This document shows, one piece after another, positions 28,652 through 64,000 of a stretch of 64,000 nt of DNA. Every line of letters begins with the position of its first letter. Position 1 is the stretch's first letter. The DNA comes from Escherichia coli. GTDB taxonomy: Bacteria > Pseudomonadota > Gammaproteobacteria > Enterobacterales > Enterobacteriaceae. The notes below the pieces were generated by a model. The model was not told the DNA's origin. It made no database searches and worked only from the letters and a program-made list of their open reading frames with translations. Position numbers and translations under genes: made by a program. The stretch lies in the NCBI RefSeq assembly GCF_044324785.1, contig NZ_CP172127.1; one strand, 5' to 3'.

Positions 28652-28658
28652 GCGTTCA

Positions 28659-29309
28659 TTAATTTGATTTATTCGCATCCATCAGCGCTTTTAACTCCTC
28701 CGGCGTAAACGGTGGTTTGCGTCGGTGCAACATCGCATGGCAATTAGGGCACACAGGAAGCAAATCATTAACTGGATCCAGCTGGTAATCCTCTTTAATG
28801 GCTGAAAGCGGCACCAGGTGATGCACATGGATAAAGCCTTCAGCGATATCACCATAGATCTTCACCAGATCAACGCCGCATACGTTGCACTGGCATCCAT
28901 GATGTTCGACCGCTTTATCTCGGGCCTTTTTATCGCGTTCATAGCGGTTTACTGTCACCTTTATCGCCGCACCTTCAACGTATGTCTCCTGCGACGGCAA
29001 CTCATCCGGGAACAGAACGTCGGCTATGGGAGCCGCAGCGGCTTTATCCTGATGAATATGAAATCCCTGCTCTATGAGTAGTTTGACGCATTTAGATTTT
29101 ATTCCGCCGGTGAAATCCGCAGGGGTAAATTGCGTCCCCGTCATCAATGTCGCTGCGATGCCAGCAATCGCCTTCGAGGGGTAACGTCGGCCATGATATT
29201 CAATCTCATACAACCGCGCAGGCTGGAACTGATGAGTTTCTCCCGCATCCCATAAATGGATAGCTTCGATGATATACCGCCGCGGAAGATGATCGGGGAG
29301 TTTATTCAT
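28659..29309 (-). CDS. HNH endonuclease with an N-terminal domain of unknown specificity (candidate modification-dependent restriction enzyme)
   Basis: 216 aa; C-terminal His-Me finger with paired Cys (CQCNVCGVD...HVHHLVPLS...N...PVCPNCHAMLH); RBS aagga 7 nt upstream; 3' end is 7 bp from the nanS stop. Confidence 0.7.
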   Translation of the reverse strand: MNKLPDHLPRRYIIEAIHLWDAGETHQFQPARLYEIEYHGRRYPSKAIAGIAATLMTGTQFTPADFTGGIKSKCVKLLIEQGFHIHQDKAAAAPIADVLFPDELPSQETYVEGAAIKVTVNRYERDKKARDKAVEHHGCQCNVCGVDLVKIYGDIAEGFIHVHHLVPLSAIKEDYQLDPVNDLLPVCPNCHAMLHRRKPPFTPEELKALMDANKSN

Positions 29310-29445
29310 GGAGAATGTCCTTATACGTTCTCAGAACAGGCAGCAAAAAAACAAATGAGATCAAGGTAATATATCTTCAGTTGCAGGCTTGAACAGCAGA
29401 AAATTTGCGAGCATGATCGCAATTATTTCACTGCCAGGGATATCA

Positions 29446-62000: not shown

Positions 62001-62889
62001 TACTTCCATTGTTATATATTTCTCCCCATATTTTTAATGTCTCATGAAGTAATTCATGCTTCTTAGTCGTTTTGTACAAAACAGGAATGACCCCTTTGGC
62101 TTCCCAAATTTCAGCCGTTGTAGATTCTTCATTTGGTTTATAATCTGCAAAGGCATATGCTTGAGGGGTATATTCGCCTAACATCCTATCTGCTGCTAAA
62201 GCATCCATCATATAGCGTAATACAGGATCATTAATACTATATCCTATAAAACAAACAACATAGTTTCTAAATAGTTCACTTACAAATCTGGCAGCCCATC
62301 TTTCTGTTAAATAAGCACATCCGAAATCACCACTGGTAACTACCAGACGGTTCAACTCTGTATGATTTTTTTTATCATGAGGTAATATTCCGTGCAAGTA
62401 AACCACTCCATTCCATCTACTATTTTTTGGAACAGGTAACATAGGTGCCAAATATGATGTTAGTTTCTTCTCCATATTTTTCGCAGCTATGTCAAAAAGA
62501 TGATCAAAATTTGTGGTGACAAGTCGTATGCGCCCACCTTGATCTTGAGATAATTGTAAGAGAGCATTATGAGTTGTTAGGGCATTTTTTCTTCGAACCT
62601 TTGGTTTCAATATCTGAGACAATGCATAGCGTACAGTTTGTTTATTTCCTACTATTCTTCTCTCAAGAAGTTCTAATGTTGTATCATATTGGTAAGCTTT
62701 ATAGGCGGCTTCTTCGAGAGCATTCCGTGTTTCACCGATTCTTTGATATATGTTGTCAACCAAATCTCCAAACCCCGGTAATCCAGCAGGATATGAAATT
62801 CCCGCTCCGCAGAAGAATACAACTTTCCCCTCTTCGTGTGCTTGTAGTAATGAATCGGGAATATCTGGACCATTAGTAATAAACTGCAT
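59098..62889 (-). CDS. SIR2-domain giant protein (defence-associated sirtuin-like; predicted NAD+-degrading antiphage effector)
   Basis: 1263 aa; N-terminal SIR2-like signature (VVFFCGAGIS, TTNFDHLFD, YLHG, VCFIGYSINDP) then ~950 aa of helical region with no obvious motifs; strongly AT-rich. Confidence 0.8.
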   Translation of the reverse strand: MQFITNGPDIPDSLLQAHEEGKVVFFCGAGISYPAGLPGFGDLVDNIYQRIGETRNALEEAAYKAYQYDTTLELLERRIVGNKQTVRYALSQILKPKVRRKNALTTHNALLQLSQDQGGRIRLVTTNFDHLFDIAAKNMEKKLTSYLAPMLPVPKNSRWNGVVYLHGILPHDKKNHTELNRLVVTSGDFGCAYLTERWAARFVSELFRNYVVCFIGYSINDPVLRYMMDALAADRMLGEYTPQAYAFADYKPNEESTTAEIWEAKGVIPVLYKTTKKHELLHETLKIWGEIYNNGSMGKERIVAQYVIAHPSTSTQEDNFVGRVLWALSDNSGKPAKRLAEMNPAPTLSWLWEFEKKSYRYPDLPRFNTPAHSEFDPNLQFSLINRPSSYKLSPRMSLASFGGEFCQWDSVMVYICLWLIKHIGNVDLIIWLAKQGGKLHPQLSNLISNRLSEIERLERNNEEQSLKRIKQEGLHAIPSQNLRAIWRLFLAGRIGTNSSVYENNYWIDQFQHGNFNMACRLALRKILAPTLILQQPFQLNFNKSSQNEKNISQSVRHELNISTDLYWLQDLENKSIWKEILPSLFDDLQQLLLDAMDLQFELNDNSISASDRSFWDLPSITPHWQNRGYRNWVKLIELLRDSWLQIYEIDKNKAKKLALNWWSFPYPVFKRLVIFSASYNECIDAKEWVNLLLEQNGYWLWAIDTHREVCRLFVLQGKTLTAIEQRKLENAITLGYSQELFNISINENEWENIVERNIWLFLSKLQFSGVKLNINAQNKLDFLSEKHPYWKLTTNERDEFSHWMSGTGDPDFEEEIITEMVPDTKDGIINWLRERADNKKSSPFERDNWIEICKQNLPMIVCVLRELAMEDIWPCKYWRSGLQTWCDKDLIQESWQEIGPLLLNIPDDLFPEIQHSLAQWLAKISTGMSELNDVYTTYCQRIIDFSYDETDDYKSIIQAINHPVGNITQALINIWLNGKPHDNEGIPDKLKVFFTKLCDTHNISFRNSRVILASNLIPLFRVDTNWAKKYLLPLFIWDSNFLEAKSVWPGFLWTPRLYAPLLAAFKQAFLKTAEHYQDLGDTDAKKQYTIFLTYAALEPTKDYVLDDYQKAFRNLPSESLIISTNTLVDAIESSGEQYSEYWDNCIKIFLKKIWPKSQKLRTPGISENLVQLCIAGQDRFQDIFDTVKPWIIPFEWPHYTLKKLYESEIPNKFPSQTLELISLIMDNQRGCAEEIEICLVDIIKAKKKLINTPQYKRLVEFKK

Positions 62890-63038
62890 CTCGTTGCCTG
62901 GTTAGTTTGTGAAATGAATTTTGATTATAAATCTTCTTTATTGGTTCATGTAAGAAATCGGCACTGCCTTTTGACCGATAGCTGATATAGTATGTCTAAG
63001 TTATGATGATATAACATTTCTTACCTTGGATAGTAACA

Positions 63039-64000
63039 ATGCCTTTAGATTTAAGTAAAACTTTAGTTATTGGCATCAGCGCGACTGCGCTTTTTGATAT
63101 GAGTGAATCAGATCACATGTTTCGCGAAACCTTTGTGACTGATCCTGATAGCGCCATTGAAAAATACCGCGCTTATATGCTAGAACACGAAAACCAACCT
63201 TTACAGCCCGGAACAGGCTACCCCTTAGTCAAAGCGTTGCTGGGTCTGAACCAGTACCGTCAACCGGATGATAAATCGCCGTTGGTTGAGGTTGTTGTGA
63301 TGTCACGTAACAGCCCTGATACCGGTATCCGTGTTCTGAATACTATTCGCCATGACAGGCTCGATATCACTCGATCGGCCTTTACGGCAGGCGAAACCGT
63401 TGCCGATTACCTTGATGCCTTTGATGTGGATCTGTTTTTAACGACCAACGTCGAGGATGCGCAAAAGGTGATTGATTCCCGATTCTGCGCCGCTGCAATC
63501 CTGAAAGATCCTCCTTCCGACGCATCTGATATCCCGGAAGGGCAAGTGCGCATTGCTTTTGACGGCGACGCGGTACTTTTTTCCGATCAAAGCGAACTGG
63601 TTTATAAGACCCAAGGAATGGCTGCCTTTCATGCTCAGGAAGACGCGCAGCAGGATATCCCTATGGAAGAGGGGCCTTATGCCACTTTGCTAAAAAAAAT
63701 AGCCAAGCTTCAGGAACGATTGCCGACCCGCGTTGAGTATTCTCCTGTTCGTATTGCGCTGGTGACAGCCCGAAATAGCCCTTCGGAAATGCGCGTTATT
63801 AAAACGCTAAGAAGCTGGGGGGTATATGTCGATGAAGCTTTTTTTCTTGGCGGTGTAGAGAAAACAAAAGTTCTGAAGGCGTTTAAGCCACACATTTTCT
63901 TTGACGATCAGGATGTACATTTGATCGCGGCTGCAAAGGTAGTACCTTCTGGTAAAGTACCTTATGCCAGTAACTCCGAACTGGCAGAACGTGAAGCATC
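63039..64000 (+). CDS. cN-I-like 5'-nucleotidase family protein; 3' end beyond the window
   Basis: Open frame of 320 codons from ATG 63039 to the window edge, so absent from the track; contains IAFDGDAVLFSD (DxD phosphoesterase motif as in cytosolic 5'-nucleotidase I); weak RBS. Confidence 0.55.
   Translation, partial: MPLDLSKTLVIGISATALFDMSESDHMFRETFVTDPDSAIEKYRAYMLEHENQPLQPGTGYPLVKALLGLNQYRQPDDKSPLVEVVVMSRNSPDTGIRVLNTIRHDRLDITRSAFTAGETVADYLDAFDVDLFLTTNVEDAQKVIDSRFCAAAILKDPPSDASDIPEGQVRIAFDGDAVLFSDQSELVYKTQGMAAFHAQEDAQQDIPMEEGPYATLLKKIAKLQERLPTRVEYSPVRIALVTARNSPSEMRVIKTLRSWGVYVDEAFFLGGVEKTKVLKAFKPHIFFDDQDVHLIAAAKVVPSGKVPYASNSELAEREA

Follow-up and report, generated by a model that had tools for sequence, protein, structure and literature searches.

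We analysed a 64,000-nt stretch of Escherichia coli DNA (assembly GCF_044324785.1, contig NZ_CP172127.1; hereafter the window, numbered from its first nucleotide) in which the gene order shared with strain K-12 ends at nanS and gives way to accessory DNA rich in defence genes. This accessory region is very probably the variable locus between nanS and the tRNA gene leuX, published as defence hotspot #37 and described as the busiest such hotspot of E. coli, and represents a new instance of a described locus assembled from described modules. It consists of two units. Unit A (28652-41424) lies between nanS and a degenerate copy of the leuX 3' end at 41425-41441, and unit B extends from 41442 to beyond position 64000. 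The window thus carries an attachment-site (att) scar between two units, the second akin to the E. coli island CP4-57, with recognizable points at which cassettes have been swapped and with intact reading frames. The reading that we consider highly probable, judged from sequence comparison, is that elements integrated serially at leuX, that the older unit decayed, that defence cassettes were swapped at two bays, and that unit B is a CP4-57-family island inserted into the 3' end of leuX. Gene content was assigned from the list of open reading frames (ORFs), from profile searches with PADLOC, NCBIfam, Pfam and PHROG, and from sequence searches of the PDB. Accessory counts given below are matches among 5,426 complete E. 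coli genomes in RefSeq.

The left boundary of the locus is well defined. The window is collinear with K-12 (in reverse complement) from 3856 to 28654, covering kptA...fim...nanC-nanM-nanS at 97.5-98.3% identity, just as the original prediction for this DNA had described the order up to nanS. The nanS gene itself (27671-28651, plus strand), with which the core ends and which is the published left flank of hotspot #37, is 98% identical to its K-12 counterpart. Everything from 28654 to 64000 varies among the genomes compared, with module frequencies ranging from 0 to 58%, which agrees with the earlier view that all DNA past nanS is accessory. In K-12, approximately 40 kb of unrelated DNA, comprising an intB pseudogene, insertion sequence (IS) elements and fec, sgc and yjh genes, separate nanS from leuX; this K-12 DNA had rightly been attributed to a leuX-associated element. 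The break of core synteny at nanS is not perfectly clean, given that a relic of about 370 bp of a phosphorothioate (PT)-dependent nuclease gene adjoins nanS in K-12 (4536268-4536625, annotated ythB) and corresponds to window 29281-29713. No HNH gene was found beside this relic in K-12. The retention of the PT-nuclease relic next to nanS indicates that the module is an old resident there, predating the divergence of very different hotspot contents.

The boundary between the two units is marked by a 17-nt direct repeat of the leuX 3' end at 41425-41441. The window reads TGGTGCGAAGGCCGGAC where leuX has TGGTGCCGAAGGCCGGAC, with one base deleted. About 0.04 near-matches to the leuX 3' end are expected by chance, and no further leuX fragment was detected in the window by an 18-mer search allowing up to three mismatches, by blastn-short of the leuX region or by a fuzzy regular expression with indels. 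In strain EC21Z-151, unit A directly adjoins an intact leuX followed by ahr-idn. The homology between this locus and the window runs through hsdR and its downstream spacer and ends 17-18 nt into leuX, and the window DNA beyond that point is unrelated. Moreover, the same repeat variant terminates the homologous element in strain JNE141411 and in E. coli W, with a second integrase-bearing element lying beyond it. In Z1322HEC0001, the same variant stands 3' of a type IC hsdR, and yet another element has been added there. The stop of homology inside leuX, together with the same repeat ending elements elsewhere, identifies 41425-41441 as the distal att copy and divides the region into two units. 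Beyond the att copy, JNE141411 and W carry a second integrase, followed by genes for a serine/threonine kinase, a HerA-type helicase and large hypothetical proteins; leuX elements thus stand in tandem there, with a further, uncharacterised cargo set.

The original prediction had tied the whole region to leuX and treated it as one variant element of at least 35 kb, with the window covering the distal part. The tie to leuX is borne out by the repeat at 41425-41441 and by the loci of relatives. A single integrative element reaching from leuX to nanS would account for the accessory nature of all genes past nanS, and K-12 and strain 2013C-4282 indeed have such an element. However, the internal repeat sits exactly where the homology to the intact leuX locus ends, unit A without unit B adjoins leuX directly, unit B without unit A occurs in W and JNE141411, and the DUF4942 backbone gene is present in two copies. 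We therefore regard a single element as very improbable: the repeat is the true distal end, and the 12.8 kb beyond it belong to a separate unit.

Unit B has the backbone of a CP4-57-family island (43025-51574), comprising genes for DUF4942, CbtA, YeeU, RadC, DUF932, hyp284, YfjJ-like, AlpA, hyp261, a GTPase and a WYL regulator. All lie on the minus strand except those for the YfjJ-like protein and AlpA (47784-48734, plus strand). The unit's DUF4942 gene, the second in the window, occupies 43025-46001 together with those for CbtA, YeeU, RadC and DUF932, and the GTPase and WYL regulator genes occupy 49752-51574. Profile searches recognized RadC and the GTPase (NCBIfam) as well as the WYL regulator (PADLOC), and AlpA matched excisionase families, including the PHROG excisionase. 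In tblastn comparisons with K-12 CP4-57, amino acid identities were 83% for YfjQ, 70% for YpjF, 62% for YfjZ, 55% for LfgB/RadC, 43% for YfjR, 42% for YfjP and 28% for YfjJ. Unit B thus shares with CP4-57, which resides at ssrA and has CP4-6 and CP4-44 as relatives, homologues of YfjJ, YfjP, YfjQ/DUF932, YfjR/WYL, RadC and YfjZ/YpjF at 28-83% identity, an AlpA-type regulator, and the carriage of defence cargo inside the backbone (AbpAB and RnlAB in CP4-57). It differs in residing at leuX rather than ssrA, in the inverted AlpA/YfjJ module placed after the GTPase and WYL genes, in possessing DUF4942 and a distal bay, in lacking YfjI (DUF3987), and in its cargo. The literature, searched for islands with this set of backbone genes (DUF932, RadC, CbtA, integrase), yielded no account of the element family as such.

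The backbone order WYL, GTPase, AlpA, YfjJ-like, DUF932, RadC, YeeU/CbtA, DUF4942 and the orientation of its genes recur in E. coli W, JNE141411 and 2013C-4282. The mixed orientation of modules, from which a mosaic had been deduced earlier, is thus the fixed architecture of the family in all relatives examined and no sign of recent scrambling; the mosaicism is real, albeit located at two cargo slots and in both hsdS genes. Three backbone proteins deserve a brief comment. The YfjJ-like protein (47784-48398, plus strand) matched Pfam YagK_YfjJ_C and, more weakly, REP_ORF2-G2P (E 7.5e-7), a rolling-circle initiator domain, which hints at a replication or mobilisation role for such integrase-only islands. 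The conserved backbone ORF hyp284 (46237-47091, minus strand) had no match in any library searched, Pfam included. Judged by eye, the sequence of hyp261 (48954-49739, minus strand) seems to begin with a signal peptide, and an uncharacterised PHROG matches its last 90 residues.

The proximal end of unit B falls outside the window. Neither a tRNA (ARAGORN) nor an RNA family (Rfam, gathering thresholds) was found anywhere within the 64 kb. In JNE141411, W and 2013C-4282, the same element (about 97% nucleotide identity) goes on beyond the point that matches 64000, with the remainder of the 5'-nucleotidase gene, another PT-dependent nuclease, a tyrosine integrase, leuX, and ahr or its remnant. Salmonella Havana has the same order up to the integrase, where the locus stops. 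Judging from these relatives, a P4-type integrase of unit B and leuX very probably lie just beyond the window. The stretch corresponding to the DNA past 64000 and up to leuX measures 2.6 kb in JNE141411, and we infer a length of about 25 kb for unit B and about 38 kb for the nanS-leuX interval.

The tRNA site and the excisionase-like AlpA also raise the question of whether unit B could be a degraded prophage or a P4-like phage satellite carrying defence genes. The integrase of its relatives lies at a tRNA site reportedly used by P4-like satellites, which occur at hotspot 37 (PMC10121019). Furthermore, the K-12 relatives are catalogued as cryptic prophages, and AlpA matches phage excisionase families. 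However, PHROG, NCBIfam and Pfam scans of the uncharacterised ORFs yielded no capsid, tail, terminase or lysis gene and no P4 primase, sid, psu or delta, and the RefSeq annotation of the relatives is likewise free of such genes. A phage or satellite origin of unit B accordingly seems to us very improbable.

Unit A, 12.8 kb in length, has no integrase and keeps no backbone gene except DUF4942 (34100-34933, minus strand; methyltransferase-like), which is 97% identical in amino acid sequence to the unit B copy and 95.6% identical in nucleotide sequence to the copy in the JNE141411 element. Its leuX-side end is formed by what appears to be a relic integrase-proximal arm (41265-41424), which matches the spacer between leuX and intB of K-12 at 75% identity over 179 nt and the hsdR-leuX spacer of EC21Z-151 at 95%. 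The K-12 element at leuX, known as KpLE2 or PR-Y, shares with the window the chromosomal site, the distal junction, the PT-nuclease relic and this spacer. It differs in carrying fec, sgc and yjh genes, IS elements and an intB pseudogene, and no such defence stack. In 2013C-4282, one intact element reaches all the way from leuX to nanS, with DUF4942, distal cargo and a relic of the PT-dependent nuclease following one another toward the nanS side; by analogy, this element shows what an undecayed unit A would resemble. The DUF4942 copy, the leuX-intB-like arm and the 2013C-4282 element together suggest that unit A is what decay has left of an element that occupied this site earlier.

Comparison with relatives locates the exchange of cargo at two slots. 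The proximal slot, from hsdS to the 5'-nucleotidase gene, contains the protein hyp228 and the defence-associated sirtuin Dsr1 in the window, in JNE141411 and in Salmonella. In the same place, E. coli W has proteins of 582 and 88 residues, 2013C-4282 has a single 181-residue protein, and Klebsiella grimontii has hyp228 alone. The distal slot follows DUF4942, and the cargo-side break occurs about 30 nt past the DUF4942 stop codon. This slot contains AbiE in unit B of the window, W, JNE141411 and Z1322HEC0001, a McrBC-like pair in unit A of the window and in EC21Z-151, and RelE/CopG, a helix-turn-helix (HTH) protein and an intact YjhR helicase in 2013C-4282. In addition, hsdS is the non-aligning segment in both type I restriction-modification (RM) systems (36846-37816 and 57205-58367), whereas hsdM and hsdR align at 95-98% with the closest loci. 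The failure of hsdS to align is consistent with exchange of target-recognition domains, of which it is the usual signature. The two DUF4942 copies (34070-34953 and 42995-43969; 97% amino acid identity, with the 3' 300 nt 97% identical in DNA) form direct repeats (D1) spaced by 8.9 kb. If they recombined, the type IC RM system would be lost together with the att scar and AbiE, and the McrBC-like cargo would come to lie behind the unit B backbone.

These repeats also bear on the possibility that the locus is mainly a chromosomal recombination hotspot, where exchange is largely homologous and proceeds through the conserved sequences on either side (nanS and leuX-ahr) and the repeated backbone genes, with the integrase and att sites being historical. 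Unit A is present in 158 genomes despite having no integrase. The McrBC-like genes are at least 99% identical in 315 carriers against about 97-98% for the flanks, internal repeats such as DUF4942 could serve as substrates, and in 68% of the occupied hotspot-37 loci the published survey could detect no mobile element (PMC10121019). On the other hand, the relatives of unit B encode an AlpA homologue and, next to leuX, an integrase that seems intact, and site-specific integration is what characteristically produces tandem arrays in which each unit has one att copy. Homologous exchange complements serial integration more than it excludes it, and as the main explanation we consider it unlikely.

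Several points weigh against serial integration followed by decay. No left-hand att copy was found near nanS for unit A, and the decayed status of this unit rests on two relic segments and on analogy. Near-identical copies of the type IC RM system occur on plasmids, and the RM genes may thus have reached unit A separately. The proximal end of unit B is placed by synteny with relatives of about 97% identity, its integrase and leuX being outside the window. None of the genomes has the exact A|B junction, so that no sister genome reveals the order of events. As for function, all defence activities are assigned by family membership, and the McrBC-like pair scores below the NCBI equivalog cut-offs (117 and 108 bits against 637 and 338).

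The distribution of the modules among the genomes compared is uneven. The HNH gene next to nanS has some match in 3163 genomes (58%) and a match covering at least 80% of its length in 1238. The HNH and PT-nuclease genes occur as a pair in 325 genomes (6%), and the McrBC-like pair in 315, always at 99% identity or more. Because the neighbouring DNA is only about 97-98% identical, this uniformity suggests recent horizontal spread of the McrBC-like cassette. The whole of unit A is found in 158 genomes, unit B in 13, and the A|B junction in 0 of the 5,426. Every module therefore recurs in other genomes and the junction alone is unseen, making this locus a new combination of known parts. The content is clearly far from common to all E. 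coli. Strain N3, the nearest core relative (99.3% identity over window 1-12000), has a very large helicase/methyltransferase gene cluster and a type II Zorya system at this locus instead of the window content. The N3 locus (NZ_CP031609.1, 291000-340000) consists of a truncated nanS, about 30 kb of helicase/methyltransferase and type II Zorya genes, a second nanM fragment, the HNH and PT-nuclease pair, and leuX. This arrangement indicates that insertions reach the nanS side of the hotspot as well.

We propose the following history for the locus. New elements would integrate at leuX through a P4-type integrase, with the tRNA gene being regenerated, and each newcomer would displace the older units toward nanS. 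The older units would then drop their mobility genes and retain defence genes under selection. Unit A would have lost its integrase and most of its backbone in this way, and the EcoR124I-type (type IC) RM system now occupies their place, next to the old integrase-proximal arm. Cassettes would be exchanged by recombination at the two bays and within hsdS, with the DUF4942 direct repeats as one substrate. In unit B, the proximal bay holds the type I RM system, hyp228, Dsr1 and the 5'-nucleotidase-family candidate PDC-S08 (and the PT-dependent nuclease in relatives), and the distal bay AbiE. Following the precedent of CP4-57, where overproduction of AlpA is the standard trigger of excision (PMC3105296), AlpA may drive integrase-mediated excision of unit B.

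The activities of the respective families suggest a layered immunity. The two type I systems would cut unmodified foreign DNA, the McrBC-like pair, the PT-dependent nuclease and the HNH enzyme are predicted to cut modified DNA, and AbiE and Dsr1 are predicted to abort infection where the nucleases fail. A more far-reaching proposal is that the backbone (P4-type integrase, AlpA, YfjJ-like, DUF932, RadC and DUF4942) might be a helper-mobilised, self-excising vehicle with two bays, possibly using the rolling-circle-initiator-type domain of the YfjJ-like protein, and that serial integration and decay of such elements might fill and renew hotspot #37, with hyp228 as a side case that might be a new membrane effector acting together with the RM system encoded in the order hsdR-hsdM-hsdS (R-M-S); we regard this as speculative and rather doubtful.

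All systems named in the original prediction are present, namely two type I RM systems, a McrBC-like pair, two HNH nucleases, AbiE, CbtA/YeeU, a SIR2 protein (Dsr1) and the backbone genes. In unit A, the gene next to nanS encodes a 216-residue McrA-like HNH nuclease (28659-29309, minus strand; Pfam HNH at residues 141-197), a candidate type IV enzyme. Its N-terminal part (residues 24-87) resembles the head domain of ScoMcrA (E 3e-5), its HNH domain resembles that of E. coli McrA, and its matches to PADLOC mREase_IV are weak. The adjacent gene (29389-30318, plus strand) encodes a predicted PT-DNA-dependent SBD-HNH endonuclease of the EcoWI/SprMcrA type (NCBIfam NF045808; score 437 bits, cut-off 180), with translation likely starting at the ATG of codon 20. 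Its sulfur-binding domain (SBD) matches ScoMcrA structures and its HNH domain matches TagI. It passes the NCBIfam model for restriction of PT-DNA, and PT-dependent cleavage is predicted; EcoWI-type SBD-HNH enzymes restrict dnd-modified (PT) plasmids (PMC7461809). The protein shares 76% amino acid identity with its homologue in E. coli W. The two HNH genes are divergently transcribed and together resemble a split ScoMcrA.

The McrBC-like cargo of unit A comprises a McrC-like gene (30381-31757, minus strand; NF007277, E 8e-31), annotated as "McrC family protein" in RefSeq relatives, and a gene for a McrB-like GTPase of 684 residues (31688-33742, minus strand; Pfam AAA_5), whose ORF overlaps the former. 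The AAA+ domains of McrB from T. gammatolerans and E. coli align with the McrB-like protein over stretches that include Walker A, DEINRGNISKIFGEL and GTMNTAD (also DEINRG..., MNTAD). The N-terminal approximately 215 residues of the McrB-like protein, in the DNA-reading position, had no Pfam match. Equivalence to the 5-methylcytosine-specific McrBC of K-12 was rejected because the scores fall far under the equivalog cut-offs, and we therefore refer to the pair as McrBC-like. We also rejected DUF4942 as a methyltransferase partner of the pair, given that in other elements this gene stands before AbiE or RelE/CopG cargo.

The type IC RM system of unit A (35240-41200, plus strand) consists of hsdM (35240-36796), hsdS (36793-37962) and hsdR (38084-41200), recognized by PADLOC as MTase_I, Specificity_I and REase_I. 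The HsdR and HsdS matches are near full-length; that of HsdM covers the protein almost end to end, the best profile being longer. HsdR aligns with that of EcoR124I end to end over 1038 residues, the two proteins being of equal length (2253 bits), which assigns the system to type IC. The hsdS gene differs from that of EcoR124I, and the recognition sequence is thus probably different.

The distal cargo of unit B consists of AbiEii (41620-42567, minus strand; PADLOC E 8e-128) and AbiEi/DUF6088 (42560-43024, minus strand; PADLOC E 5e-53), the two genes overlapping by 8 nt. On the other side of the backbone lies the second type I RM system in the order R-M-S (52060-58349, plus strand), with hsdR at 52060-55476, hsdM at 55540-57174 and hsdS at 57171-58349. 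All three proteins have near full-length PADLOC matches (REase_I, E 5e-274; MTase_I, E 5e-192; Specificity_I, E 2e-160), and the HsdR proteins of relatives contain HSDR_N, ResIII and EcoEI_R_C domains.

Directly 3' of hsdS is the gene for hyp228 (58371-59057, plus strand), a 228-residue protein with two N-terminal transmembrane helices and without a match in Pfam, PADLOC or NCBIfam. It belongs to a small enterobacterial family confined to E. coli, Salmonella and Klebsiella. The gene always directly follows the hsdS of the same R-M-S system and is absent from the otherwise identical E. coli W element. In E. coli and Salmonella, Dsr1 is its neighbour; Klebsiella grimontii has hyp228 after the same RM system without Dsr1, which led us to reject hyp228 as a Dsr1 accessory. 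The gene is possibly an accessory or an independent defence gene.

The adjacent Dsr1 gene (59098-62889, minus strand), a single-gene system, matches NF041818 over residues 1-1262 with 1670 bits against a cut-off of 1400. The PADLOC score is 1607 bits, and SIR2-family profiles (ThsA, LmuA, SIR2) match residues 12-260. The last gene (63039-64000, plus strand), which had gone unlisted before, encodes a 5'-nucleotidase-family protein matching the PADLOC candidate PDC-S08 (E 8e-134) and is cut by the window edge about 4 nt before its end. In relatives, the PDC-S08 protein has 321 residues and a Pfam 5-nucleotidase domain and is followed by the PT-dependent restriction endonuclease (PT-REase), the integrase and leuX.

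Base composition, which had been proposed as a check, discriminates poorly. The island has a GC content of 43.5-44.3% against 47.7% for the adjacent core, and the tetranucleotide distances of most island modules overlap those of 5-kb core chunks. Only the hsdS-hyp228-Dsr1 cassette stands out, with the lowest GC content in the island (35.5%). At the opposite end of the window, a 1221-residue ORF (38-3703, plus strand) is annotated in relatives as the inverse autotransporter IatD. The K-12 DNA differs here, the collinearity begins at 3856, and a match covering at least 80% of window 1-12000, including the IatD gene, occurs in 616 of the genomes; the left end of the window is thus a second variable region.

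In the survey of Hochhauser et al. (2023; PMC10121019), defence genes of E. coli fall into 41 mapped hotspots. Hotspot 37, flanked by nanS and yjgB with tRNA_Leu_CAA, is occupied in 462 of 475 genomes (97%; their S1 table), and 97.4% of the occupied loci carry defence systems, of 31 types in total. AbiEii is restricted to hotspots 5, 33 and 37 (PMC10121019). The authors could not determine the mode of mobilisation at hotspot 37 (PMC10121019), and a later review names leuX as the anchor of the locus and reports type IC RM and PT-related defence there (PMC12707154). The original prediction did not name the region as this hotspot. The window agrees with it in the nanS flank and in the presence of AbiEii, of type I RM including type IC and of PT-related defence; synteny and the att copy make it probable that the leuX/yjgB (ahr) flank and a P4-type integrase at the tRNA end, as reported for the hotspot, lie beyond 64000. 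It differs in its combination of modules, which is absent from the genomes compared. Within 35.3 kb, we count seven recognised defence systems, one candidate and one CbtA/YeeU toxin-antitoxin pair. The defence stack had been called unusually dense. This is true relative to the whole-genome average, 1,577 systems having been counted in 190 finished genomes or about 8 per genome (PMC10121019); for hotspot #37, such density is expected.

As a discovery the locus carries little weight, the site being published and every module recurring in other sequenced E. coli. Its modest worth is that of a worked example, in which an active-looking island stands beside a decayed one, with an att scar between them and two fixed cargo slots recognized from relatives. 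It also draws attention to three poorly characterised candidates, namely hyp228, the small McrA-like HNH nuclease and the McrBC-like pair. The hotspot survey left the movement of cargo unresolved; the internal att copy, the relic gene and the two bays seen here allow an explicit picture of accretion and decay. Such an account would explain the lack of a recognisable mobile element at most occupied hotspot-37 loci, and how one site can hold about as many defence systems, roughly eight, as an average E. coli genome in total.

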